From NCBI GenBank assembly GCA_002787155.1, contig PCVY01000065.1, forward strand, positions 65,286-129,285: DNA of 64,000 nucleotides. Reading direction: 5' to 3'. Below are positions 3,342 to 63,496 of this stretch, in pieces (positions within the stretch are counted from its first letter, which is position 1; each line of letters opens with the position of its first letter). Source of the DNA: Candidatus Abzuiibacterium crystallinum (GTDB lineage: Bacteria; Omnitrophota; Omnitrophia; Omnitrophales; Abzuiibacteriaceae). A program made the translations under genes and the position numbers. The notes under the pieces are model-generated. The model saw nothing but the letters and a program-made list of their open reading frames with translations. It made no database searches and was not told the origin of the DNA.

Positions 3342-3420
3342 GGGTCGGGGAGTTTCACCGATCCTTCACCCTATACCAGTCATGATCAAGCGGGGCCGGC
3401 ATAGGGTTTTATTGGCTCAT
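3342..3420. repeat. Dispersed ~80-nt element, family C, copy 1
   Basis: GGGTCGGGGAGTTTCACCGATCC...TCACCCTATACCAGTCATGATCAAGCGGGGCCGGCATAGGGTTTTATTGGCTCAT. The ~55-nt core is about 85% identical to 16976-17055. Confidence 0.6.
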
Positions 3421-3490
3421 TTATCTTTATTTTAAAGAAGCTTTCAGCTATACTAACTCCTTTATACAGTAATACTTACGCGGAAATCCA

Positions 3491-9106: not shown

Positions 9107-9135
9107 GGGGTCAGACCCGGGAGGGTCTGACCCCT
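9107..9135. repeat. Family A palindromic element (GGGGTCAGACCC / GGGTCTGACCCC hairpin), copy 1
   Basis: GGGGTCAGACCCgggaGGGTCTGACCCC: a 12-bp stem with a 4-nt loop, directly after the nuoN stop. Confidence 0.8.
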
Positions 9136-9167: not shown

Positions 9168-9263
9168 CTCGCCCGGCGGGCGAGGCAGAACCAACCCTAA
9201 ATAAAAAAGAGCTCGTCCGAAGTATCAGGGAGGTGAGTACTTCGAACGAGCTCTTATGTTTTA
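9168..9263. terminator. Bidirectional terminator region between the convergent nuoN and porin genes
   Basis: Tight GC hairpin CTCGCCCggcGGGCGAG (9168-9184). A long hairpin AAGAGCTCGTCCGAAGTA...TACTTCGAACGAGCTCTT (9207-9255) flanked by an A-run on one side and a T-run on the other. Confidence 0.7.
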
Positions 9264-11351: not shown

Positions 11352-11972
11352 TTACGGAACGGTGTGACACCTGGCCACAGGCTCAAAACTGAACCGGTGA
11401 ATGGGGGAAGGGCCGTAAGCTGCCAATGCAGCTCGATGTAAGGCGGTCGCATAACCTTTGTGCTGAGAAAACCCATATTGAGGGTATAGTTTGTCATAAT
11501 CTTCCATCATTTTATCTCGCGTGACCTTTGCCACAATGGACGCTGCGGCAATGGAAATGCTTTTGCGGTCACCGTCTATAATCGGAACTTGCTCAATCTG
11601 TTTCGGCAAATCGTGAACACCATGAATCCCATCAATCAAAACCGCTTCGGGGGTCACGCTTAGTGTCAGAATGGCGTGGCGCATGGCTAAAAGAGAGGCT
11701 TGAAGAATATTGAGTTCGTCAATCAGCTTGCCGCTGATGACACCAACCCCGACACGGCCATGGGCCAATATTTCCCAATACTTCTCTTGACGTTTTTTGG
11801 GGGTCAGGGACTTTGAATCCCGGATCTTCTCTTCTTGAAAAAAGGGGGAATCGTGGGGAAAAACAACAGCGGCAGCGACAACCGGGCCTGCTAACGGCCC
11901 TCGTCCGGCTTCATCGACACCGGCAATGCGCCTTAGACCATTTTGAACAAACAGCGCTTCAAATGAATGCAT
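11352..11972 (-). CDS. rnhB: Ribonuclease HII
   Basis: GVDEAGRGPLAGPVV catalytic motif. 206 aa. Confidence 0.9.
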   Translation of the reverse strand: MHSFEALFVQNGLRRIAGVDEAGRGPLAGPVVAAAVVFPHDSPFFQEEKIRDSKSLTPKKRQEKYWEILAHGRVGVGVISGKLIDELNILQASLLAMRHAILTLSVTPEAVLIDGIHGVHDLPKQIEQVPIIDGDRKSISIAAASIVAKVTRDKMMEDYDKLYPQYGFSQHKGYATALHRAALAAYGPSPIHRFSFEPVARCHTVP

Positions 11973-12083
11973 TCACGTCCGCTTTCGTCCTTTATCGCGA
12001 CCAACGATATGTTAGGAGAAAGCCCGGCGTGAGTCAACCAAATAACCGATTAAGCATCTGGACATTCAGTCCCGTATGCTCAT

Positions 12084-12113
12084 CCGCCAGAGGACGGATT
12101 CGTCCTCTGGCGG
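12084..12113. repeat. Family B hairpin element, copy 1
   Basis: CCGCCAGAGGACggattcGTCCTCTGGCGG: a perfect 12-bp stem with a 6-nt loop. A second copy at 62805-62838 carries a compensatory change. Confidence 0.7.
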
Positions 12114-12134
12114 AGAGAGTTTTACTTCATACAC

Positions 12135-12166
12135 CTGGGAGTCAGACCCTCCTGGGTCTGACTCCA
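12135..12166. repeat. Family A palindromic element, copy 2 (variant GGGAGTCAGACCC / GGGTCTGACTCC)
   Basis: cctGGGAGTCAGACCCtcctGGGTCTGACTCCacg, about 10 nt downstream of the rplS stop. Confidence 0.8.
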
Positions 12167-12176
12167 CGTCCGTTAA

Positions 12177-16975: not shown

Positions 16976-17055
16976 GGGGTCGTGGAGTTTTTCCCCAACC
17001 CCTCACCCTATACCAGTCTTGATCAAACGAGGCTGGTATAGCGTTTCATTGGTTA
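16976..17055. repeat. Dispersed ~80-nt element, family C, copy 2
   Basis: GGGGTCGTGGAGTTTTTCCCCAACCCCTCACCCTATACCAGTCTTGATCAAACGAGGCTGGTATAGCGTTTCATTGGTTAT, which contains the hairpin CTATACCAG...CTGGTATAG. It lies between rpmE and prfA. Confidence 0.6.
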
Positions 17056-17373
17056 TTTTTTAATGACCTTCGCTTTTTCTTCTTTTTTAGCGCGCACTTT
17101 GACGGGCTTTTTCTTACCCTTCGATACCACATTGTCTTTGTACTTCTTCTTGAACTTTTCAATGCGGCCTGCGGTATCAATGAGTTTTTGCTGTCCCGTG
17201 AAAAATGGGTGTGATGCCGACGAAATCTCGAGCCGGATCAACGGATAAACTTGGCCGTCTTCCCATTTAATGGTTTCGTTCGATTTGGCCGTCGAGCGTG
17301 TCAGAATGGCAAAATCAGCGCCGGTGTCTTTAAACACGACAAATCGATAATCGGGATGAATGTCTTTTTTCAT
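17053..17373 (-). CDS. rpmE: 50S ribosomal protein L31 with a Lys-rich C-terminal extension
   Basis: MKKDIHPDY... is an L31 N-terminus. The ~30-aa K-rich tail is an extension not found in all lineages. Confidence 0.85.
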
Positions 17374-18940: not shown

Positions 18941-19564
18941 TTAAGATTGATCGATAAAGTCCCTCCACCATTTTGTCACTTGCTGCCGAAGCGCCTGTGA
19001 GTTACCGGCATTATGAATGATAAAGTCGGCATGTTTCATTTTGCGTCTGACAGGCCACTGGGCACGCCACCGAGCGGTCATTGTTTGAGCCGTCAAGCCT
19101 TTGCGTTTGAGTCTTTGCCGGATCAGGCGTTTTGGCGCTGTCACCACCATCACATGATCCACTTTTTTCTCATAACCTGTTTCAAGTAAAAGCGGCATCT
19201 CAATGACGATGACATTGGCGTGGGAACGTTTTAAAATGCGCTGAATCCGTTTAAAAACGTAAGGATGAACCAAACGCTCCAGCTGTCGGCGCTTTTTTCT
19301 ATTTTGAAATACCACCGCTGCAATGTCTGCCGGTTTTGCTTTTTTTAATTTTAAAGAGCGCGCGATTTTCTTCTGAAGCGGGTGGTACTTTTTATAAATT
19401 TCTCTTACCAAGGCATCACAATCGATGACCAGAGCGCCCCGCTCTTTTAATATGGCGGCAACCGAACTCTTACCGCTTCCAAAAATACCTGTTAAACCAA
19501 TGATAGAACGTTTTTGTTTGGATGCCATGTCAGGCTTTGAACCAGCTTCCTCCGTGAACCACAT
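18941..19564 (-). CDS. coaE: Dephospho-CoA kinase
   Basis: P-loop GLTGIFGSGKSS. The likely true start is the internal MASKQ (near 19528), which removes the overlap with polA. Confidence 0.85.
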   Translation of the reverse strand: MWFTEEAGSKPDMASKQKRSIIGLTGIFGSGKSSVAAILKERGALVIDCDALVREIYKKYHPLQKKIARSLKLKKAKPADIAAVVFQNRKKRRQLERLVHPYVFKRIQRILKRSHANVIVIEMPLLLETGYEKKVDHVMVVTAPKRLIRQRLKRKGLTAQTMTARWRAQWPVRRKMKHADFIIHNAGNSQALRQQVTKWWRDFIDQS

Positions 19565-22202
19565 CGACTTTTAAAGGCACTTTGAGTTTGGCGGCGCCTT
19601 CCATTTTGTCTTTCACCATTTTGGTTAAGTCCGTCAATTCGCTATCCGGAGCGTCAAAAACCAATTCGTCATGAACTTGAATCGCCATTAAACTTTCCCA
19701 TTTTCCCTGATCCAATGTTTTTTGAATTTCGATCATGGCTACTTTAATTAAATCTGCCGCCGAGCCTTGAATGGGTGCGTTGATGGCAGCCCGTTCTGCA
19801 AACTGTTTGAGCGACGGATTTGAAGAATTGATATCGGGAAAAAGCGAACGGCGGCCAAACATGGTGGTGAGGTAACCGTTTTTCCGGGCCAGTGTTTTTT
19901 GTGCTTCTAAGTAATCTTTAATTTGTGCATACCTCATAAAATAAGAATCGATGAAATGCTGTGCTTCCGGAATCGAAACCTTCAACTCCTGCGCTAACCC
20001 AAAAGCGCTCACGCCGTAAACAATGCTGAAGTTAATGGTTTTAGCAACATTGCGCATTTCCCGGGTGACGTCTTTTTCTTTCACACCGTAAAGCAGCGTG
20101 GCCGTAAAAGAATGAATATCTAAATCTTCTTTAAAAGCGCGCGTTAAATTCTTATCTTCGGATAAATGAGCCAGAATGCGCAACTCAATCTGTGAATAAT
20201 CAGCCGATACAATTTTTCGTTCCTTGCCGCGCGGGACAAATGCCCGCCTGATTTCACGCCCCGTTTCCGTTCGAATGGGAATGTTTTGCAAATTAGGATC
20301 AGAGCTCGAAAGCCTGCCCGTGGATGTCACCGTCTGATTAAAGGAGGCGTGAATCAAACCTGTTTCAGGATTAATCAATTCGGGAAAAGCATCTAAATAA
20401 GTAGACTTTAACTTCGATTTTTCTCGGTATGCCAGCAGCAACTTGGGAAGATCGTAAGTCTGAGCCAGTTTTTCGAGCACCCCGACATCCGTTGAATAAC
20501 CTGTTTTCGTCCGCTTGATGATGGGGAGTTTAAGTTTGTTAAATAAAATATCGGAAAGTTGCTTCGTAGAATTAATGTTAAATTCCTCACCGGCTTCTTT
20601 GTAAATTTGGCTGGTGAGACTGGCAAGATCTTTTTCCGCTTTTTGAGACAACTGCTTTAAGAAAGCCGTGTCAATGGCGACGCCGTTTTGTTCCATTTGA
20701 GCCAGTACCAGCAAAAGGGGCATTTCGATTTCCGCATATAACGCCTCCAGCTGATGCACCTGGAGCAATTTCCGGAGAATCGGAATCAATCGGGCCACAC
20801 AATCGGCGTCTTCACAAGCATATTCACTCACTTGATCAAGCGGCACGGCATCCATGCCAATTTGTTTTTTCCCGCTTCCCAATAAGTCTTTGGTGGCAAT
20901 TTTCCTGACTCCGATATATTCAAACGTCACATCATCCAAATTATGATTCAGTTTAATGGGGTTGATGAGATAAGAGGCGATCATGGTATCGAAGAATGGC
21001 CCTTGAAGCTCGATGCCGTGCCTTCTCAGGACCAGAAAATCATATTTGATGTTGTGTCCCCATTTGCTCTTTGATGACTGTTCAAGCAGGGATTTTATTT
21101 TTTTTTGTATGTTTTTCCATGCCAAACCGCCGCCTTGATGCTCAGGCTGCGAAACAGGGATGTAATAAGCCGTAAACGGCTCCCAGGAAAAACTAAGTCC
21201 CACCAAGCGGGCCGTCATCGGATCAACCGAGGTGGTTTCGGTATCAACCGCAAACCCTTTGGTTTTTTCTAACTTTTGAATTAATTGATCTAAATCTGAT
21301 TCTGTTTGAATGGTATGATAATTTCTCTTCTCTGTTTCAGCGACGCTCGCCGGGGCTAGTTCGTTTAATAAGCTGCGAAATTCGAAACGTTTGTAAAATT
21401 CTCCTAACTTATGCTGGTCTGCCGGATGGGGTTTCAACGCCTCCATATCCGTTTCAACAGGCACCTGACAATCAATGACAGCCAAATCTTTTGACAACAA
21501 TGCAATTTGTTGGTTTTCTTTCAATTTGGTTTGCCGCGAAGCGCCTTTAATTTTTCCTAAGTGCTCATAAATTTTTTCAACAGATCCATGTTCCTTAATC
21601 AATTCGAGCGCCGTTTTTTCTCCGATGCCCGGCACGCCGGGAATGTTATCAGAAGCGTCCCCCATGAGCCCCAACACATCAATAATTTGTGTCGGCCTCA
21701 GTCCCGAGAAAAGCGCTGAAACTTCTTTGGGCCCCATGATTTGTTCTTTGTGCGTATGAAAAATAGAAATGTGATCATCCACCAATTGAAAAGCATCTTT
21801 GTCACTTGTCACAATCAAGACTTTGTAATCTTCTTCTTTTGCCCGCTTGGCTAAGGTGCCAATGATATCGTCCGCTTCATAGCCCGCTAATTCAAAAGCC
21901 GCAATGCCATAAATGTGAAGAAACTCTTTGATATGAGGCATTTGCTCAATGAGCGGTTCCGGCATGGGTTTGCGATGTGCTTTATACTGTTCAAATTTTT
22001 TATGCCGAAAAGTAGGTTCTTTACGGTCAAAACAAACAGCCACAAGATCCGGCTTCAAATCCTGCAGGAGTTTCTTGAAGATGGTAATGAATCCATAAAT
22101 CGCATTCGTCGGCTCGCCTTTCGAACTGGTCAGCTCACGGATTGCATAAAAAGCCCGATAGCATAAGGACTGGCCGTCTACGAGCATTAGTTTTTGTGAC
22201 AT
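19530..22202 (-). CDS. polA: DNA polymerase I
   Basis: 890 aa with a 5'-3' exonuclease N-terminus and Klenow-like polymerase motifs (motif A DYSQIELR, motif B RRAFVPRGK-type). Confidence 0.9.
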   Translation of the reverse strand: MSQKLMLVDGQSLCYRAFYAIRELTSSKGEPTNAIYGFITIFKKLLQDLKPDLVAVCFDRKEPTFRHKKFEQYKAHRKPMPEPLIEQMPHIKEFLHIYGIAAFELAGYEADDIIGTLAKRAKEEDYKVLIVTSDKDAFQLVDDHISIFHTHKEQIMGPKEVSALFSGLRPTQIIDVLGLMGDASDNIPGVPGIGEKTALELIKEHGSVEKIYEHLGKIKGASRQTKLKENQQIALLSKDLAVIDCQVPVETDMEALKPHPADQHKLGEFYKRFEFRSLLNELAPASVAETEKRNYHTIQTESDLDQLIQKLEKTKGFAVDTETTSVDPMTARLVGLSFSWEPFTAYYIPVSQPEHQGGGLAWKNIQKKIKSLLEQSSKSKWGHNIKYDFLVLRRHGIELQGPFFDTMIASYLINPIKLNHNLDDVTFEYIGVRKIATKDLLGSGKKQIGMDAVPLDQVSEYACEDADCVARLIPILRKLLQVHQLEALYAEIEMPLLLVLAQMEQNGVAIDTAFLKQLSQKAEKDLASLTSQIYKEAGEEFNINSTKQLSDILFNKLKLPIIKRTKTGYSTDVGVLEKLAQTYDLPKLLLAYREKSKLKSTYLDAFPELINPETGLIHASFNQTVTSTGRLSSSDPNLQNIPIRTETGREIRRAFVPRGKERKIVSADYSQIELRILAHLSEDKNLTRAFKEDLDIHSFTATLLYGVKEKDVTREMRNVAKTINFSIVYGVSAFGLAQELKVSIPEAQHFIDSYFMRYAQIKDYLEAQKTLARKNGYLTTMFGRRSLFPDINSSNPSLKQFAERAAINAPIQGSAADLIKVAMIEIQKTLDQGKWESLMAIQVHDELVFDAPDSELTDLTKMVKDKMEGAAKLKVPLKVDVVHGGSWFKA

Positions 22203-27260: not shown

Positions 27261-28463
27261 TTAAGCAAACAATAACTCTCTCATTCTGGTGCGGATGTGA
27301 GCAGAGCTTGCTTTCCCTTGTTCTGTTGAACGGCCGATCCAGCCGCCGCCTAAGACGATATCACCGTCGTAAAGAACGCATGCTTGACCGGGTGTAATGG
27401 CGTCTTGCGGTTCACGAAAGTTCACCTGCACATGATCATTCGAAAGAAATGAAAGCGTGGCTTCAGCTTTTTGATGCCGCGAACGAATTTTAGCTTGAAC
27501 GTGGTTAGGATTAATTTGTTCCAACGGGACAAACCAATTGATTCTTTCAACTTCACACCGTTGACTATAAACATCCTCTTTGGGACCGACAATGACCAGA
27601 TTTTCTTCGGGCAGGATATCAATCACATAAAGTGCGTGCGGATGCGCAATGTTAAGTCCTTTGCGTTGACCAATCGTAAAATGATAATAGCCTGGGTGCG
27701 TTCCTAACACGCTGCCTTCTTTGTCTCTGACTTGACCGACGTCCTCAGAAGCAGCGGCAGAAACCGCGCCCTGTTTTTCAAGAAAAGCACCGTAATCATT
27801 GCTGGGGATAAAACAAATTTCCTGCGAGTCGGGTTTATTGGCAACGCACAAGCCGATCCGGCCGGCAATTTCGCGAATCGTTTGTTTGGTATATTGACCA
27901 ACCGGCAGTTCGAGATGACTTAAGACATCTTGTGATAGCGGGAATAAAACATATGATTGGTCTTTGGCCGCATCTAACCCCTGGGAAACGACAAAATGTT
28001 GTTTGTGTTTGTCATATTTCAATTGCGCGTAATGCCCTGTTGCAATTTTGTCGTATCCAAGTTCGCGGGCTCTTTGTAAAAACAATTTAAATTTGATGTG
28101 CTCGTTACAAGCAATGCAAGGATTAGGCGTGTTTCCCTTCATATATTCATCGGTAAAGTAATCGACCACGTGGGTTTTGAATTCTTTCTCAAAATTAAAT
28201 ACGTGATAAGGAATCTCGAGGCGTTCTGCTACATCGCGCGCATCTTCAACACCAATTACCCCGCAGCACGATTTGGTATTTTTTTCTTCACAGTCGCCGC
28301 TTGCCCACGTGCGAATGGTAGCGCCGCCCACTTCCCAGCCTGCTTGCTGCAGTAAGTAAGCTGCGACTGACGAATCAACGCCTCCGCTCATGGCAACCAA
28401 TATTTTCTTTTTCATAATAACAATCCTGAATCCTGGGGTCAGGTTAGGGTCTGACCCCATCAA
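27261..28463 (-). CDS. mnmA: tRNA-specific 2-thiouridylase MnmA
   Basis: PP-loop ILVAMSGGVDSSVAAYLL. The likely true start is the internal MKKKIL (near 28415). The track ORF extends into the family A repeat, translating it as GSDPNLTP. Confidence 0.85.
   Translation of the reverse strand: MMGSDPNLTPGFRIVIMKKKILVAMSGGVDSSVAAYLLQQAGWEVGGATIRTWASGDCEEKNTKSCCGVIGVEDARDVAERLEIPYHVFNFEKEFKTHVVDYFTDEYMKGNTPNPCIACNEHIKFKLFLQRARELGYDKIATGHYAQLKYDKHKQHFVVSQGLDAAKDQSYVLFPLSQDVLSHLELPVGQYTKQTIREIAGRIGLCVANKPDSQEICFIPSNDYGAFLEKQGAVSAAASEDVGQVRDKEGSVLGTHPGYYHFTIGQRKGLNIAHPHALYVIDILPEENLVIVGPKEDVYSQRCEVERINWFVPLEQINPNHVQAKIRSRHQKAEATLSFLSNDHVQVNFREPQDAITPGQACVLYDGDIVLGGGWIGRSTEQGKASSAHIRTRMRELLFA
28435..28458. 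repeat. Family A palindromic element, copy 3
   Basis: cctGGGGTCAGgttaGGGTCTGACCCC, between bioD and mnmA. Confidence 0.8.
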
Positions 28464-30636: not shown

Positions 30637-30669
30637 TTTGCCTCCAAAAGCCGTTATTATAATTGGATA

Positions 30670-30739
30670 GTCACAAAGTCACAAGGATGCAAGTGATGAC
30701 TTATGATATTGTAACGTTGTAACGTTATAACTTTGTGAC
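30670..30739. promoter_or_regulatory. Composite symmetric operator-like element upstream of bioA (candidate biotin-operon operator)
   Basis: Outer inverted repeat GTCACAAAG (30670-78) / CTTTGTGAC (30731-39), flanking a 22-bp near-palindrome TTGTAACGTTGTAACGTTATAA (18 of 22 self-complementary). It lies 34-103 nt upstream of the bioA start. Confidence 0.4.
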
Positions 30740-30766
30740 CCTATAATTTTAAACATAAAATTATGA

Positions 30767-31945
30767 TTGATTTGCCGTGCGCTTCCTTTTATATATAGAC
30801 GCATGAAAACAATCAAATCGTTTCCCCAAGCGGCGTTTCAGAAGAAGCTGCTCAAATGGTATCAAACCTCAAAGCGCCCACTGCCATGGCGGCAGAAGAA
30901 AAGTGCTTATGGAACCCTGGTCTCAGAAATCATGCTCCAGCAAACGCAAATCAAAACCGTGATTCCTTATTACGGGCGCTGGCTTAAAACTTTTCCGACC
31001 ATTCAAAAACTGGCAAAAGCACCGCTTAGGAAAGTGCTTAAATTATGGGAAGGCCTGGGTTATTACTCGCGCGCTCGCAATCTTCACCGAACGGCTCAAA
31101 CAATTGACCGCCGATTCCAAGGACAAATTCCATCCGATCCGGAAATCCTGATGATGCTCCCCGGCATCGGACGCTACACAGCCGGCGCCATCGCAAGCAT
31201 TGCCTATGATCAACCGGTGCCTTTGGTAGATGGGAATGTCGCACGCGTATTTTCACGCATTTTTTTAATCAAACAAGATATTTTGAAACCGGAAACGCAG
31301 AAACTGCTTTACACGTATGCTTCCTCACTGGTTTCTTCAAAACAAGCAGGCAATTTCAATCAAGCTTTGATGGAATTAGGTGCTTTAATCTGTACACCTG
31401 CATTACCGGAGTGCTCGCTCTGCCCGGTTCGTTCCCTCTGCTGCGCTTATCAAAACGGCGTGCAAGAAACACTTCCTGTTCGATCAAAAGGTCCTCAAAA
31501 AAAGAAGGTGTTTTTGCAAGCAGCACTTCTGACACACCAAAACAAAATATTAGTTCAGGAACGTCCGGCAAAAGGTATTTGGGGTGGTTTGTGGGAGTTG
31601 CCTAACAGGCGCGTGAATGGCGAGCATGAACCCAGAAAATTTAAACGTTATTTAGAAAAACAATATCGTGTTTCTTTGGCGCCGACTTTTAAACGTTTAT
31701 CTTTAATGAAACGTGAACTCACGCATTTGTCCGTTGTGATTGAACCTTTTCAATTTCTGGTTAAAAAAACTGCTTTAAAACAAAGCGAAAAGCTGCGTTG
31801 GATATTGAAGCCTCATTTAAAATCCATTTCTTGTCCGGTCCCTTATCAGCAAATCCTTCAAAATCATTTTGAATCTAAAGTCTTGGGGTCAGACCCTGAC
31901 CTGACCCCAAGCAAAGGGTCTGACCCCGCGCAACCAAATGGATAA
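30767..31945 (+). CDS. mutY: A/G-specific adenine DNA glycosylase MutY
   Basis: HhH-GPD fold, 4Fe-4S loop CTPALPECSLCPVRSLC and a NUDIX-like C-domain. The last ~20 codons run through two family A repeats (…GSDPDLTPSKGSDPAQPNG). Confidence 0.85.
   Translation: MICRALPFIYRRMKTIKSFPQAAFQKKLLKWYQTSKRPLPWRQKKSAYGTLVSEIMLQQTQIKTVIPYYGRWLKTFPTIQKLAKAPLRKVLKLWEGLGYYSRARNLHRTAQTIDRRFQGQIPSDPEILMMLPGIGRYTAGAIASIAYDQPVPLVDGNVARVFSRIFLIKQDILKPETQKLLYTYASSLVSSKQAGNFNQALMELGALICTPALPECSLCPVRSLCCAYQNGVQETLPVRSKGPQKKKVFLQAALLTHQNKILVQERPAKGIWGGLWELPNRRVNGEHEPRKFKRYLEKQYRVSLAPTFKRLSLMKRELTHLSVVIEPFQFLVKKTALKQSEKLRWILKPHLKSISCPVPYQQILQNHFESKVLGSDPDLTPSKGSDPAQPNG
31883..31928. repeat. Family A palindromic elements, copy 4 (a full hairpin plus a half-site)
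   Basis: CTTGGGGTCAGaccctgaCTGACCCCAAG hairpin, then GGGTCTGACCCCgcgc. Located inside the 3' end of mutY and overlapping the ygfZ-like start. Confidence 0.8.
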
Positions 31946-32924: not shown

Positions 32925-32944
32925 GGGTCAGACCCCGCGCCGCG
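32924..32944. repeat. Family A element, copy 5 (GGGGTCAGACCCC followed by GCGCCGCG)
   Basis: Palindromic GGGGTCaGACCCC between the convergent ygfZ-like and giant-protein stops. Like the copy-4 half-site, it shares the GACCCCGCGC extension. Confidence 0.7.
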
Positions 32945-32946
32945 AC

Positions 32947-35900
32947 TTAAGCCATTTCGGCAATCCGGCTCCATGATCGGATCTCCCGATCGAGAATATC
33001 AGCCAAACCGGCAATGCCTGATCTTAAATTTTTGATGGTGTTGTCTGAAAGTGTAATAATGCGATCGTAAAACTCGGACAACCGGGAATTGGCAAGTGTT
33101 GTTCTGGTCAATAGAGTGAGTCGCTTAGCACCACTCGCACGTAACTTGACGGCCAAAGCTTGAGGTGTTTTGGCAAAAACGATTTTTCGGTCTTCCGGAA
33201 GCATCGCATTGGCATTTTGAATCAATTCTAATTCGGAACCGGTCGTATAAACCACGCCTATCAATGTGCCGCTGTGTGCTGCTTCGGTTGCTAAAGCAAA
33301 AAGCCCGTCCCCAAAAGCAACGCTCCAGTCAAAAACAGTTGCTTGTGATTGGTCAAGCGTGGCACTGATGCCAAGTCGATCATAAAAATAAGATTTGGCA
33401 CTTGGATTTTGGTCAAACAAAGCATGAGCTTGTTCTACCGCGCGGGCAAATTGTGTTCTATCATTGGCGGATTCCGGCAATGCGATTCTTAACTCAGCTC
33501 GTTCATCAACATTCGATGCCGCGCGTGCTAGCTGGTGTGTAACGGTTGCAATGAGCCGGTCACCTTCATTTGGCGCATTTGTAATGGCTTTTGACACTGC
33601 TTGCACGAAACGCGCGGGCACTCTTCTCTCAATAAGGGCGGCCGCCCATTCGCCGATCGCAAACGCCCAAGCACGCCAATCATCGGCAGGAATGGTTGTC
33701 AAAGCATCAACCAATGTGCGCTTTCCGGCATCTTTCATGATTTCAGATTGAATGATTTGGAAAGTAATTTTGTCACCCACTGAAGCTGCTGCCGCTAATT
33801 GCAGCACCCACGCCCAAAGGCGGTTGGTAATATCGCCAGGCGTTTGGTTGGGAAGTTCTTTGGTGCGGATAATTCCAAACTCTTTCCATTCATTGTAATC
33901 GATAGAACCATCTTCGCTCATGGCATATAAAATAAGCAAATAACCAAACGCCCATATTTCAAATTCAGTTTTCGGCATATCCGCTCTCGCCATCACGTCT
34001 TCTATTTGATAAAGCCAAGGACCAAATAAGTTTTCTCGTAAAGGCGCCCGGCCTCTGGCTTGGAATTCGGCCAAAGCCATTCTGCCGATTAACCATCGCC
34101 GCCAACTTTGGAACGATTCTTCAGTCAGTCTTTCAATATCCTGTTTCATAAAATCTTTGATTTGAGAATAAATTCGGTTGCCATTCCCGGCAGCAACCAA
34201 TAAAGCAACGCTTGCGCTGTAAGCACGCAGTTTAATTTCCTCTTGCGTGTTACCCGGCATCGCTTTCATTGCTTCAAAAAACCGCCACACTTGCTTAGAC
34301 ACTTCTTTCTTATCGGTGTAATCGATCTCGCGCAGATTGATTACAAATTTTCCGCGCAGCTCAGAATGACCGGATCTTTTATTTCGTTTCATACGAAGCT
34401 TATATTGGAGATCGGTTTGAATACCGATGGATACATACAATCTGTTTAATTCTTCTTTTGCCTTTTTAATTCTTACTTCGTCTTGATCAACTTCGGCTTG
34501 TACACGTTCTTCCATTAACGCCAACCACATTTTAACGACAATTGGAATGCCTGCTAAATAGCGTTCTCCAGTATGGACGTCATGTTCTAAATCAAGAATG
34601 ATTTCTTCATCCGCATCATCAGTGATGCTATTAATAAAGGCGCCCATCCGGGCATCTTCGATTTGCCTATCAAGACTCAGGTTGGTACGAAGAATTAAAA
34701 CTTGAACAATATTAAATTCATCCAAAATAGATTCGGCTAAATTTTCCTTGCTTGCCATTGTTCTTAAAGTTGCTAGTTTGGGCAAGATGCGATTTCTGGA
34801 TGTTTCGATAAGCTGCATCAAAGAAATTTGAGATTGAATGCGTAATTCTGCATGGCCGGAAGAACTTTCTTTTGATTCCGCGAGTTTGATACTGATACCA
34901 ACAATGCGGCCGGCGCCTGCAAAATCTCCCAAAAGAAGGACGGTTGGTTCTTTGCTGCCATTTTCTTTGACAACCAAACTGGTTAGTTCTTCATCCTGAA
35001 AGGATACGAATGTGCCATAAATGACACGATTCGTCGTTTGTCCATGCGCACGATAAAGCAATCGGATTGAATCGCCCGGTTTGAGCGAGTTCGCCAATAA
35101 AAATTCGGCATTAAGCGTTTGTTCGATATTCAGTCGAATTTTCTGATTTGACCGTATTTCAAAACGACGCACCTCGCCATCTTGACTGACAAAAGTGATT
35201 AGCACTTCTAAACCGGTTACTTTGTTCCGGTAATGCATCGCAGAACCGGGATTAAAATATGTTTGGCGGCCAGGGTCGACCAATGTTTCATTTTTGCCGT
35301 GATTGATATAAATTACTTCTAAATTGCGGGGTCGTACGCCTCGGTAGGGTTTGGGGAACTGAAAAACATTTTTATTGGCTCTGTTCTGAACAACGCCTAT
35401 GGGTAACAAAAAGTCTTGGTTAAAATTAATGGTCATCCATCGGTACGGCAAGGCAATGGTGGTTGAAAATTTTAATTCTGTTTGTTCTTTTTCATCTGAT
35501 TTTGTTTCAATTTCATCTTCAGCAGGTTTTTGACGCAATTCTGAATGAGTCGAAGCTGAGACGATTTTAGCAAGCACAATACCTAAGGCCCGAATTTCAC
35601 CGGTACCCTCAAAATCCTCCAAGGGGAATACGGTTGGAACGAGCTTATCATTTTCTTGAACCACTAAGTGATTGACCGTATCACCGATTTCGTAACTCAC
35701 AAAATGACCTTTAACGGGCCGGCCTTTGTTTTCTCCGTGCAAACGATAGAAGAAGTGAATTTCATCTCCCGATTTTAATGAATCAGCAAGCATGAAATCA
35801 ATATGCCGTGCTCTTTTAAATGTCAGGCGAATTTTTTTGTTAGATTTTATTTCAAAACGCCGGCCGGTATCGTTTTTTGAAACATATTCGATTGAAACAA

Positions 35901-37128
35901 CTAATCCTGTTGTTTTGTTTTCAATTCGTGCAGACTTGCCAACATTCACATAAACTTGCTCACCTAAAGCAGCGGGAATTTCTTTTCCCTCTACATTAAC
36001 ATAGATTAATTGAAGATCGGACCCAGGTCGGCGGTTTTTGGGATAGTTAAACAGCGTGACGGCTGTTTTCTTTGACTGGACAATGCCAAACGGTAATGTA
36101 AACTCGTCGCCGAAATTCACGCCTACCCATTCATGCGGAATGGTAATAAAAGCCGAAAAAGGTAACTGTATTTGGTCTGCAATGATTTCTTTATCCTTTT
36201 CTATGAAACGTAATTCTTGACGACTTAAGAGTTTTTGTTCGGCTGATTTTGCAGCTTTATTCACATCCTGATCAAAGAGGCCAAAGACACTTATTGTTTT
36301 TATCCAATCCCGCAACTCTGAACGTTCAAAAGTAACTTCAAAATCACCCATCATGAGCCGCCCGTCTGTAGCGGCAAAGCGCAAGCGATTACCGTTAATA
36401 TGTTTGAGAAGAATCGAAACACCCGCTTTCGAATCAACGGGTTGCTGGCGGCCTTTTAAATCAGCCAATTTTGAATCTCTTGAAGTAGTTATAAACGCTT
36501 CTGCCGCGGAAATTAACCAAGCCAATGCTGCTTGATTATCATCACGATCAACATCCAATAAAGTATAAAGCTGCGGATGTGGATTAAAACTTCCGGGAAT
36601 AAGCGCAAGTTTAAAAGGATACCTTTTCCTGGGCGGTAGATTTTGAGGCGGCGCTGTTTCTAGCGGAAGAAGTTCTTTTAAGATATCAAGAACAGTTCTC
36701 GGAATTCTTCCTTCAGAATTAATGATACCGGCTTTTTTCCAAGCTTTCCCTGCTGTTTGTACCTCTGAATCTTGAGGGGTAAGTTTATTGTGTACAAGAC
36801 CTCTTAGAATGCTGCGCTCTTCTTGTGTCAGCCCCACGAGCATCTGGTTGACTTGATTTTTTAAAGTCTCGCCTTCTCTTAATTCTGCTCTTAATTCAGG
36901 TGCCGTTTGTAAACGTGAAAGCGCTTCCATTGACCCTGTTTGTTGCAACCACCCATTGTTAATGAGCGTTTGCTGTCTGGCATGCGAAAATTCTTCACGA
37001 ATGGTTTGTGTAACGGTAGTAGGAACGTCGGAATATGCGATTGTCTCCGTCCAGCTAAAAGCCGCTACGAGCACAATGGCAATGGTTTTAAGAAGAATTG
37101 GGTTTGACTTCGTTTTTAGAAAGGACAT
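32947..37128 (-). CDS. Giant secreted protein (1393 aa) with two tandem ~210-aa internal repeats, function unknown
   Basis: Sec-type signal peptide. Repeats at about aa 322-532 and aa 553-763 (nt ~35533-36165 and ~34840-35472) share LP(F/I)G(I/V)VQ…(I/V)Y(V/I)N…KTTGL/KVTGL…RRFEI(K/R)SN(K/Q)KIRL…SLK(S/P)GD…HG…V(K/I)YGTFVS… at about 35-40% identity. The long C-terminal half is predicted to be helical. Confidence 0.7.
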   Translation of the reverse strand: MSFLKTKSNPILLKTIAIVLVAAFSWTETIAYSDVPTTVTQTIREEFSHARQQTLINNGWLQQTGSMEALSRLQTAPELRAELREGETLKNQVNQMLVGLTQEERSILRGLVHNKLTPQDSEVQTAGKAWKKAGIINSEGRIPRTVLDILKELLPLETAPPQNLPPRKRYPFKLALIPGSFNPHPQLYTLLDVDRDDNQAALAWLISAAEAFITTSRDSKLADLKGRQQPVDSKAGVSILLKHINGNRLRFAATDGRLMMGDFEVTFERSELRDWIKTISVFGLFDQDVNKAAKSAEQKLLSRQELRFIEKDKEIIADQIQLPFSAFITIPHEWVGVNFGDEFTLPFGIVQSKKTAVTLFNYPKNRRPGSDLQLIYVNVEGKEIPAALGEQVYVNVGKSARIENKTTGLVVSIEYVSKNDTGRRFEIKSNKKIRLTFKRARHIDFMLADSLKSGDEIHFFYRLHGENKGRPVKGHFVSYEIGDTVNHLVVQENDKLVPTVFPLEDFEGTGEIRALGIVLAKIVSASTHSELRQKPAEDEIETKSDEKEQTELKFSTTIALPYRWMTINFNQDFLLPIGVVQNRANKNVFQFPKPYRGVRPRNLEVIYINHGKNETLVDPGRQTYFNPGSAMHYRNKVTGLEVLITFVSQDGEVRRFEIRSNQKIRLNIEQTLNAEFLLANSLKPGDSIRLLYRAHGQTTNRVIYGTFVSFQDEELTSLVVKENGSKEPTVLLLGDFAGAGRIVGISIKLAESKESSSGHAELRIQSQISLMQLIETSRNRILPKLATLRTMASKENLAESILDEFNIVQVLILRTNLSLDRQIEDARMGAFINSITDDADEEIILDLEHDVHTGERYLAGIPIVVKMWLALMEERVQAEVDQDEVRIKKAKEELNRLYVSIGIQTDLQYKLRMKRNKRSGHSELRGKFVINLREIDYTDKKEVSKQVWRFFEAMKAMPGNTQEEIKLRAYSASVALLVAAGNGNRIYSQIKDFMKQDIERLTEESFQSWRRWLIGRMALAEFQARGRAPLRENLFGPWLYQIEDVMARADMPKTEFEIWAFGYLLILYAMSEDGSIDYNEWKEFGIIRTKELPNQTPGDITNRLWAWVLQLAAAASVGDKITFQIIQSEIMKDAGKRTLVDALTTIPADDWRAWAFAIGEWAAALIERRVPARFVQAVSKAITNAPNEGDRLIATVTHQLARAASNVDERAELRIALPESANDRTQFARAVEQAHALFDQNPSAKSYFYDRLGISATLDQSQATVFDWSVAFGDGLFALATEAAHSGTLIGVVYTTGSELELIQNANAMLPEDRKIVFAKTPQALAVKLRASGAKRLTLLTRTTLANSRLSEFYDRIITLSDNTIKNLRSGIAGLADILDREIRSWSRIAEMA

Positions 37129-43179: not shown

Positions 43180-43209
43180 GGGGGCCAGACCCTAACCTGA
43201 CCCTCAGGT
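43180..43209. repeat. Family A palindromic element, copy 6 (variant)
   Basis: GGGGGCCAGACCCTAACCTGACCCTCAGG. Its reverse complement contains GGGTCAGGTTAGGGTCTG, identical to the core of copy 3. It lies downstream of cysK. Confidence 0.7.
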
Positions 43210-44896: not shown

Positions 44897-44904
44897 CTTT
44901 TTTT

Positions 44905-44963
44905 AAGGGGACAACTCCCTTTTTCACTTTTCCATCTTTTTCAGAAAAAGGGAGTTGTCCCCT
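44905..44963. promoter_or_regulatory. 20-bp perfect inverted repeat AAGGGGACAACTCCCTTTTT (19-nt spacer) AAAAAGGGAGTTGTCCCCTT
   Basis: Seen directly in sequence. It lies between the stop of the small basic ORF and the UDG start codon, on the same strand, with T-rich flanks and a T-rich loop. Confidence 0.55.
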
Positions 44964-44975
44964 TACCCTTCACGA

Positions 44976-62032: not shown

Positions 62033-62716
62033 TTATTCGACTAAGGCAGACCAAGCCCAAGTGCCGTTCATCGGATACCCCGGATTGTCCGGAGGATTCG
62101 GAACTAAACAAGTATATACGCTTCCGAAACCATAAATTTCCCGGCTCCACCAAAACCAAAAACCTTTCCCGAGACCCGCTAAAACATTGCCTTCGCGCGC
62201 GCCTTTTAAGGTTTGCCCAGGCAATTCGGCAATGCCTAAAAGCCCGTCTGAGAATCCGTGAAGCAGCTTGCGTCCGATAGGCTTCACACCTTCAGCCAAG
62301 GAAGGTTTGAAAAGATCATATTGTTCGCCCATTTGCCAAGGATATTCGGCATCAAACGGAATACCAACGCCTTCATTATCAGCCGGGTTTGCCATCCAAA
62401 AGCCAACAAGTTCCAATCCGCCCCAACCCACACGACCAGCAGCATGACCTATCCCGCGAAAGAACCCTAGGATAGTGCCAACGGTTTTTGACCCTACGTT
62501 ATTTTTAATCAAACCGAATCCTTTGTCATATCCCTTGTAAATTTGCATGGGAATTTCGACAACTCCTGTCACCATGTTGACACCGCCACGCACGGCTTTA
62601 TGTACCATTCCTGACGGAATGTTGTCGGTGGCAGCATAGAGAGGCGGTGCAACGAGCAGTAGAGCAAGAATTGCTCCGATCAATTTTTGCATAAATCCTC
62701 CTTTGGCATCTAACAC
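62033..62716 (-). CDS. Secreted Gly/Trp-rich protein, unknown
   Basis: Signal peptide from the internal MQKLIGAILALLLVAPPLYAA. No known motifs. Confidence 0.5.
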   Translation of the reverse strand: MLDAKGGFMQKLIGAILALLLVAPPLYAATDNIPSGMVHKAVRGGVNMVTGVVEIPMQIYKGYDKGFGLIKNNVGSKTVGTILGFFRGIGHAAGRVGWGGLELVGFWMANPADNEGVGIPFDAEYPWQMGEQYDLFKPSLAEGVKPIGRKLLHGFSDGLLGIAELPGQTLKGAREGNVLAGLGKGFWFWWSREIYGFGSVYTCLVPNPPDNPGYPMNGTWAWSALVE

Positions 62717-62804
62717 GTTAAGCTATACACCTCATCGTTAGTTTGTCATTAATACTTTAGGTAATTATAGATGTAATCTCAGCGGGGATTGTTTCGGCCA
62801 AAGG

Positions 62805-62838
62805 CCGTCAGCCAGAGGACTGATTCGTCCTCTGACGG
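62805..62838. repeat. Family B hairpin element, copy 2
   Basis: CCGTCAG(cc)AGAGGACtgattcGTCCTCTGACGG. Relative to copy 1, the C-G pair is replaced by T-A at the same stem position, a compensatory change. The downstream flank (…AAAGTTAACTCCACG) also resembles the copy-1 flank (…GAGAGTTTTACTTCATACACC). Confidence 0.65.
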
Positions 62839-63217
62839 AAAAGTTAACTCCACGATGGCAATTATATGAAATTGAAAGGCGCCAATGCTTGTGGCCGAAT
62901 TTCTTAAGATTGCCTGTCCTATTTTCTCCTATACAAAATCTCCTTTTCTTTGTTCTCAATCAACCCCATTGACTTTTGACCCGCCCGGTATATACTTCTT
63001 CCATTCACGGAGGATGTTAATCCGAAATATTCCTATCAAGATGTTTTAACGATGACCGTTAGAATATCGAAAATCAGGTAGCAGATTGAAACATTAAGTT
63101 TCTCTCTGACGGAAACAAGCCAAAGCCTTTTAATTTTGAGTTGCTGGTCCCTTATCCAAGGGAGTGGTGGCATAAAATTAAGAGGCTTTTTTTATGTGAA
63201 CAGAAAGGAAGAATAAA

Positions 63218-63496
63218 ATGAAGAAGTTTAAATTAATAGCTTTGACATTGCTCTTGGTATTGGTGGCCTTACAAACCGCTGCCATGGCTGAAACCATTGA
63301 GGGTAAAGTGGCGTCTGTTAATGCTGAAACAAGCGAAATAGAAGTCATCGCCAATGGGGACAGTTATTGGGTCGCGTATGACAGCAGCACCAAATGGCCG
63401 GAAGGTGTTACAAAGCCGGATGAGTTGGTTGATTCAATGGTTAAAATTGATGCCGATGATATCAGCTACATCGCATCAAGCGTTGAAAAGATGTAA
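63218..63496 (+). CDS. Small secreted protein, unknown
   Basis: 92 aa with a signal peptide (MKKFKLIALTLLLVLVALQTAAMA) and a good SD (AAAGGAAG). Confidence 0.55.
   Translation: MKKFKLIALTLLLVLVALQTAAMAETIEGKVASVNAETSEIEVIANGDSYWVAYDSSTKWPEGVTKPDELVDSMVKIDADDISYIASSVEKM

Follow-up and report, generated by a model that had tools for sequence, protein, structure and literature searches.

Two hairpins of closely similar sequence lie more than 50 kb apart in the 64-kb stretch of DNA analysed here (the window), and they raise the question of whether their likeness reflects selection on a folded structure or some other history. The preliminary description of this DNA placed the first hairpin, termed family B, at positions 12084–12113 and the second at 62805–62838. 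It held that the same stem-loop was kept in both, with a single C-G pair exchanged for T-A, and that such a compensatory change argued for selection on RNA or DNA secondary structure.

The first copy was read from the sequence exactly as it had been written, CCGCCAGAGGAC-GGATTC-GTCCTCTGGCGG at 12084–12113. Its perfect stem, however, is larger than that span: at 12083–12114 (32 nt, plus-strand sequence TCCGCCAGAGGACGGATTCGTCCTCTGGCGGA) the arms TCCGCCAGAGGACG and CGTCCTCTGGCGGA pair perfectly over 14 bp and enclose a 4-nt loop, GATT. Folded as RNA in a 50-nt context it reaches -34.8 kcal/mol on the plus strand and -33.1 kcal/mol on the minus strand (z about -8.5), and it is thus very stable on either strand. 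The copy occupies the spacer between rplS (ribosomal protein L19, Pfam PF01245; 12177–12500, minus strand), which is upstream of it on the minus strand, and rnhB (RNase HII; 11352–11972, minus strand), whose ATG lies 112 nt downstream. The order of elements on the minus strand is rpsP-trmD-rplS, a family A hairpin, the family B hairpin and rnhB-yraN. The family A palindrome (GGAGTCAGACCC-TCCT-GGGTCTGACTCC, 12138–12165) follows closely on the rplS stop codon and is separated from copy 1 by 23 nt. The interval from copy 1 to rnhB contains a sigma-70-like promoter match, TTGACT-17-TAACAT, at 12009–12037 on the minus strand; it is a consensus match only (9/12), and about as many matches (0.8) are expected by chance. 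The same spacer holds a 13-nt mini-hairpin, GGAC-ATTCA-GTCC, at 12060–12072, 10 nt from copy 1. It looks like the tip of the family B hairpin (GGAC-GAATCA-GTCC), with a BLAST E value of 5.9, which is not significant, and judging by its letters it may be either a chance structure or the stump of a second family B copy.

The second copy exists near the place assigned to it, and its relation to the first is not due to chance, as the statistics given below demonstrate. Its homologous 32 nt are found at 62808–62839 (TCAGCCAGAGGACTGATTCGTCCTCTGACGGA) and form an 8-bp perfect core stem with a 6-nt loop, the outer pairs being partly broken. The span previously given, CCGTCAGCCAGAGGAC-TGATTC-GTCCTCTGACGG, is 34 nt long and not 30, and it includes four extra bases, which can be placed as CCGT(CAGC)CAGAGGAC or, equivalently, as CCGTCAG(CCAG)AGGAC. 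Directly beside the copy stands a small hairpin, CGGCC-AAA-GGCCG (62795–62807), which competes for the CCG flank in minimum free energy folds of 54 nt on both strands. Folds of copy 2 in this 54-nt context, with the GGCC hairpin included, gave -21.9 and -27.1 kcal/mol. The copy 2 hairpin is much less stable than that of copy 1 (about -18 to -20 versus -30 kcal/mol), and this lower stability is decay, not maintenance. The spacer of copy 2 is a divergent one, between a gene for a TIGR04073-family exosortase-system-associated protein (62033–62692, minus strand; 61 bits against a cut-off of 50), which is downstream of the copy, and a gene for a 92-aa secreted protein that starts at 63218 on the plus strand. 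The ATG of the TIGR04073-family gene is at 62692, with AAAGGAGG immediately before the start, and it is 116 nt from copy 2 (113 nt if counted from 62805). Gene positions therefore confirm the setting first described for both copies, in the rplS 3' region adjoining family A and in a divergent spacer, respectively. The window is contained in contig PFGO01000092.1 of Candidatus Omnitrophica bacterium CG11_big_fil_rev_8_21_14_0_20_45_26 (GCA_002781965.1). Loci from assemblies of the same population show zero variation in either spacer, with base-for-base identity in 14 loci for copy 1 and in 10 for copy 2; thus, the hairpins are not assembly artefacts.

How closely are the two copies related? A repeat search of the window aligned 12083–12114 with 62808–62839 ungapped, with 29 of 32 bases in common (91% identity). 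When the 64-kb window was searched with up to three mismatches, only these two sites were found, and 100 shuffles gave no match. The 20-base core CAGAGGACNNATTCGTCCTCTG occurs in the window only at the two copies, and the 8-mers CAGAGGAC and GTCCTCTG have no other occurrence in the 64 kb. BLAST of spacer against spacer aligned 39 nt at 87% identity (E = 7.5e-9), and E was 9e-7 against the whole window. The family consensus is a 32-bp near-perfect inverted repeat, TCMGCCAGAGGAC-KGATTC-GTCCTCTGRCGRA.

A metagenome scan with the exact core returned six stretches, of which one, L005, is related to the window copies; the others are 7–9 mismatches away from the consensus. Four of these others (L001, L002, L003 and L006, copies of one sequence) as well as L004 were rejected as family B members, their agreement outside the search pattern being at chance level. 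L005, from a soil bacterium, is a 1,256-bp contig of an unrelated metagenome, and the reverse complement of its positions 88–119 reads TCAGCCAGAGGACTGATTCGTCCTCTGGCGAA, with 1 mismatch in 32 to the family consensus and a 10-bp stem. Since this contig encodes GldD (TIGR03512, 227 bits), it comes from Bacteroidota. The 32 nt of family B are therefore 91–94% identical between the Omnitrophota aquifer genome and a Bacteroidota contig, with all flanking DNA unrelated. This near-identical copy in another phylum is the one mildly surprising fact about the family, and it rests on a single 1.2-kb contig.

Hairpins of this type might also have arisen independently, as terminators or through chance similarity, with no common origin. 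GC-rich hairpins are indeed common, and unrelated ones with the same 8-bp core stem were encountered in metagenomes and viral contigs (L001–L004, L006, L142–L145). The identity statistics nevertheless effectively refute this explanation: the 29/32 identity extends through the loop with none expected in shuffles, and L005 agrees at 10 of the 12 positions left free by the search pattern, as compared to approximately 3 of 12 for chance matches. Intrinsic (Rho-independent) terminators are likewise stable GC-rich stem-loops, and copy 1 does follow rplS, as the L005 copy follows an ORF. Family B departs from them in that no T/U tract comes after the hairpin, in that copy 2 is not preceded by any co-directional gene that it could terminate, and in its 90% sequence identity, which terminators of unrelated genes do not share. 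Terminator scans of both window copies on both strands found neither a terminator nor a T-run; canonical terminators do exist elsewhere in this genome, e.g., at 9200–9262 after a porin gene.

The similarity of the copies essentially ends at the palindrome. BLAST extends it by 7 nt on the 3' side, and beyond this the flanks gave p values of 0.04–0.94. The resemblance of the downstream flanks that had been noticed earlier is not significant, with p of about 0.08 in an anchored test and p = 0.04 for the best local alignment, which consists of the 8-mer ACTCCACG at different offsets in the two flanks. What is repeated is thus little more than the 32-bp palindrome, extended on its 3' side by a few bases at most, the flanks further out being unrelated. 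The 8-mer itself was observed at 62847–62854, 7 nt after copy 2, and also at 12161–12168, where it closes the family A unit on its 3' side. Three larger units were considered and set aside. A composite of B and A, part of which copy 2 would have lost by deletion, has this common 8-mer (p about 0.04) as its sole support, which may be chance. A shared extended unit or promoter cassette was dropped, as the flanks are not similar. An excisable element between the two direct copies was rejected, the interval carrying rplS, trmD, rpsP, murA, prfA, rho and polA (the last an ORF at 19530–22202 that matches the 890-aa DNA polymerase I).

The proposed compensatory change does not withstand the homologous alignment. 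The C-G to T-A covariation (CCGCCAG/CTGGCGG versus CCGTCAG/CTGACGG) is an artefact of a shifted register, which needs a 4-nt insertion in the 5' arm. The ungapped register was given by the repeat search, MAFFT and BLAST, and the third copy, L005, agrees with it. In this register no exchange of a single pair relates the stem-loop of copy 2 to that of copy 1; the two copies differ by three single substitutions, at positions 3, 14 and 28. T62808 stands at family position 1, where all three copies agree, and A62835 is position 28, the sole substitution of the supposed pair. The CCG at 62805–62807, which was counted as stem, is flank and is not homologous to the CCG of copy 1; in the 54-nt fold it pairs into the neighbouring GGCC hairpin. 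Over the three copies, the 14-pair helix has 10 invariant pairs, 2 changed on one side, 2 broken and none changed on both sides, a count that uses three sequences and has very low power. Both one-sided stem changes are C to U, giving G·U on the minus strand and A·C on the plus strand. The two broken pairs are intact only in copy 1, whose specific bases, C3 and G14, both complete pairs and make the palindrome perfect; this could be either the ancestral state or the outcome of quasipalindrome correction.

The G28-to-A change in copy 2 does open a register-shifted helix, CCGTCAG/CTGACGG, with 12 bp and a 4-nt bulge. On the plus strand the shifted register was calculated at -17.7 kcal/mol and the homologous one at -14.3 kcal/mol, and on the minus strand the values were -17.8 and -19.6 kcal/mol, respectively. 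According to these models, the shifted helix is a real possible structure of copy 2. As a single event, indistinguishable from chance, it cannot carry an argument for selection. The case for selection on secondary structure thus loses its basis, since no pair of the 14 is changed on both sides in the homologous alignment, and the stem of copy 2 is degraded. The lesson is a methodological one: a register shift between two palindromic copies can mimic a compensatory change, and therefore the alignment has to be unbiased and to include an outgroup copy.

A function in RNA might still be sought on the minus strand, where the hairpin would be sense to rnhB, to the TIGR04073-family gene and to gldD, and would act in cis from a 5' UTR or an intercistronic region by stabilising the message or by binding a protein or RNase. 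We consider this rather unlikely. There are weak hints in its favour, namely the single orientation relative to the downstream gene and the one-sided changes, which keep pairing only on that strand. The nearly invariant loop reads GAAUCM on the strand of the downstream gene in all three copies, and both C-to-U changes keep G·U there, while they give A·C on the plus strand. The two window copies start 112 and 113 nt (in the coordinates first given) from their downstream ATGs, and the ungapped helix of copy 2 is the most stable state of the minus strand (-19.6 kcal/mol). However, the coincidences of orientation and of wobble each have a probability of about 1/4 by chance, and the L005 copy is only 19 nt from its ATG. 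Moreover, no pair covaries, no Rfam family matches, and the predicted rnhB promoter downstream of copy 1 would exclude the hairpin from that 5' UTR. Nor do the downstream genes have a common function: a check of whether the copies flank particular gene classes yielded RNase HII, the TIGR04073-family protein and GldD, which are unrelated.

The hairpin is also absent upstream of the orthologues in relatives, which speaks against the RNA explanation as well. The nearest relatives available have an RNase HII 61–70% identical to that of the window. In the window, the rplS-rnhB spacer is 204 nt long (11973–12176) and contains the two palindromes and the promoter-like site. As called in the relatives, it is 6 nt in L023 (2995–3000; RNase HII 65% identical), 24 nt in L021, where the rnhB start is possibly over-extended, and 78 nt in L025, where it contains a scaffold gap; there is no hairpin in any of the three. 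The TIGR04073 orthologues (about 70% identity) stand in other neighbourhoods, with upstream spacers of 103 nt and 18 nt from which the hairpin is absent. In L005 the hairpin is located in an 81-nt gldE-gldD spacer, after the upstream ORF and 19 nt from the gldD ATG, and in L161, a 75%-identical relative, the gldE-gldD gap is 11 nt and has no hairpin. All three copies are thus confined to intergenic spacers, intercistronic for copy 1 and L005 and divergent for copy 2. As the hairpin is absent from the same junctions in the relatives available, the three copies look like lineage-specific additions and not like conserved regulatory parts. Comparison of the spacers suggests that operon junctions in this lineage, e.g., rplS-rnhB, have been expanded by inserted DNA.

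A palindrome may equally serve as a protein-binding site in DNA, either the operator of a dimeric regulator or the core of a site-specific recombinase (dif/lox-like, with 13-bp arms and an asymmetric 6-bp spacer). The near-perfect dyad symmetry with its conserved asymmetric centre, KGATTC, would suit such a site, as would the location of copy 2 in a divergent promoter region, that of copy 1 about 46 nt upstream of a promoter-like -35 element, and the direct orientation of the two window copies. We nevertheless regard this explanation as very improbable. The copies have neither a regulator nor a recombinase gene beside them, with the nearest MarR gene in an efflux operon at a distance of about 5 kb, and the palindrome is absent from orthologous promoters. 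It is implausible that a regulator should have kept the same 32-bp site ahead of unrelated genes in two phyla. Core sites of tyrosine recombinases (dif, loxP-type) share with family B the inverted arms of about 13 bp and the asymmetric 6-bp centre. Family B differs in that no recombinase gene is found nearby, that the centres of the two window copies are not the same (GGATTC versus TGATTC) and that essential genes lie between these copies; polA, rho, prfA, murA and rplS would be lost if the direct copies recombined.

How widespread is the family? A mismatch search of 82.4 kb of the source contig (the window with flanks of 8.9 kb and 9.5 kb) revealed no third copy. A covariance model, R1, was built from three copies, the two of the window and L005. 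Run on the 64-kb window with filters off it found no new member, the next best match scoring 12 bits (E = 0.15), and neither did it find one in the two contig flanks with default filters or in 0.74 Mb of other genomes. Its best extra matches were rejected: one, in an Actinomycetota contig (L063), is a hairpin unrelated to family B, and the other (L075) falls in a coding region. The exact 20-base core had no match in 185,579 species-representative genomes, a set in which inclusion of the source genome is not established, and family B is not abundant anywhere in that set. Viral contigs yielded only unrelated hairpins or nothing, and BLAST of plasmids gave only coding-region noise with E of at least 0.3. 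Rfam had no match at gathering score in the 64-kb window; around all three copies, with E up to 10, it returned sub-threshold noise (E of at least 0.6; 10.7–20.9 bits against cut-offs of 39–100). The loop contains CGAATCC, and ARAGORN found nothing that would point to a tRNA-derived origin. A literature search for the arm sequences of family B and for Omnitrophica REPs found nothing relevant.

The explanation that best accommodates these results makes family B a dispersed DNA repeat of the REP-like palindromic kind, low in copy number, that reached its intergenic spacers by insertion or copying; we give it an even chance of being correct. It agrees with the 29/32 repeat and its relative in L005, with the palindrome-only similarity, the lineage-specific sites and the family A neighbour, and likewise with the unrelated downstream genes, the lack of covariation, the degraded stem of copy 2 and the lack of a terminator T-run and of an Rfam match. 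The family is most fittingly classed among the small extragenic palindromic repeats already known, of which it is a new and rare member. Like the REP, REPIN and BIME elements of E. coli, Pseudomonas and Stenotrophomonas, it is a short (32 nt, within 20–40 nt), GC-rich, near-perfect palindrome that forms a stem-loop, and it is extragenic, present at distant loci and placed in intercistronic spacers that are short in relatives. As in mosaic BIMEs, copy 1 lies beside a different palindromic unit, and a stable hairpin is expected in read-through RNA.

Several features of the REP class were not seen, however. Tens to hundreds of copies per genome and a cognate RAYT gene (a Y1/HUH transposase, typically REP-flanked) are hallmarks of REPs and REPINs, and classical REPs are far denser than family B, with its two copies in the 82.4 kb searched of the source contig. 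The genes of the window and the adjoining 18 kb include neither a transposase nor a RAYT gene. The borders read gctca|TCCGCC...GGCGGA|gagag (copy 1), ggccg|TCAGCC...GACGGA|aaagt (copy 2) and gtaaa|TCAGCC...GGCGAA|ggtga (L005); a GTAG/CTAC head (GT[AG]G) next to the palindrome is absent at all three. An inverted doublet (REPIN) was not found either, the three copies being single units whose only neighbour is a family A unit. REPs are mostly inherited vertically, and near-identity between phyla is unusual for them, so that the near-identity of the Omnitrophota and Bacteroidota copies also counts against the REP-like assignment. It is because the features looked for were only partly found, with neither the GTAG head nor the doublet, and because no transposase occurs in 82 kb, that we rate this assignment no higher. 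MITEs (Correia/NEMIS, ERIC, RUP) resemble family B in being non-coding, dispersed and intergenic with terminal inverted symmetry. They differ from it in that family B measures 32 bp, has no internal sequence except a 4–6 nt loop and shows no target-site duplication, as none of the three copies has a direct duplication at its borders.

If family B is a REP-like repeat, we infer that it has spread at the DNA level, as a hairpin-forming unit that would be mobilised in trans by an enzyme of the RAYT/HUH type or, alternatively, copied by recombination or template switching. Any effect in RNA would then be a by-product and not the reason for the conservation of the sequence. A minus-strand transcript would carry a stable hairpin in the rplS-rnhB intercistronic RNA, which could slow 3'-exonucleases or attenuate read-through. 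Both effects have been described for E. coli REPs. Such a repeat would matter little in itself, being one more small palindromic family in a poorly studied candidate phylum, in which junctions such as rplS-rnhB would have been expanded by inserted hairpins.

The neighbour of copy 1 belongs to a more widely distributed family. Family A follows the pattern (t)GGGGTCAGACCC(C)-N2-4-(G)GGGTCTGACCCC(a) and occurs in the window at 9107–9134, 12138–12165, 28434–28459, 31884–31909, 31916–31927, 32927–32939 and 43181–43203. These sites (at least 6 in the window) are intergenic or intercistronic, except for the pair at 31884–31927, which overlaps the ends of two genes. In species-representative genomes, more than 116 stretches among the matches listed contain its exact core, GTCAGACCC-N4-GGGTCTGAC (L026–L141), and GGG/CCC extensions, which the pattern does not require, were present in every group inspected. 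Among the matches listed, many genomes carry several copies: Omnitrophota MAGs, 'Planctomycetia' ERP125453 MAGs, Parapusillimonas, Rugamonas/Janthinobacterium/Duganella, an Oceanospirillaceae MAG and Actinomycetota MAGs. The copies are often adjacent, with alternating orientation. By analogy, copy 1 and its family A neighbour, two palindromic units of different kinds, are reminiscent of a small BIME-like cluster.

The multi-copy occurrence of family A across phyla is more striking than anything seen for family B. The near-identity of short palindromes between phyla is the only point of wider interest here; the case is strong for family A and weak for family B, with its one copy. One may ask whether family B, and perhaps family A too, forms an undescribed class of very short palindromes that move between phyla or are kept by a conserved hairpin-binding protein. 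Such a class would explain the 91–94% identity across phyla amid unrelated flanks, and also the common orientation to the downstream gene; we think it improbable. A protein that mobilises or binds the palindromes of families A and B is worth looking for.

Several further features were observed in the window. A 1,393-aa ORF at 32947–37128 (minus strand) stands amid housekeeping genes and gave no Pfam match at E up to 1e-5. A 70-nt direct repeat with 80% identity is found at 3353–3422 and 16990–17059 and includes a hairpin, CCCTATACCAG...CYGGYATAGSG. One of its copies occupies the spacer from which a 123-aa gene and the nuo operon diverge; the other is 39 nt ahead of prfA, in the spacer between that gene and rpmE. 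Both are upstream of minus-strand genes. The pair may represent a leader or promoter common to the two loci, or else a further family of repeats. Two perfectly complementary 22-nt arms, 18 nt apart (44904–44925 and 44944–44965; TAAGGGGACAACTCCCTTTTTC and GAAAAAGGGAGTTGTCCCCTTA), form an inverted repeat between a uracil-DNA-glycosylase gene and a T2SSE ATPase gene. Each arm is a small hairpin with a T/A run, and from its layout the whole looks like a pair of back-to-back terminators. Finally, a 36-nt imperfect inverted repeat at 30657–30692 and 30717–30752, containing CACAAAGTCACAAGG and CTTTGTGAC, is located in the divergent spacer between a bioA-bioD-like pair (Aminotran_3 and AAA_26 domains) and mutY, a position in which it may act as an operator for the biotin genes.
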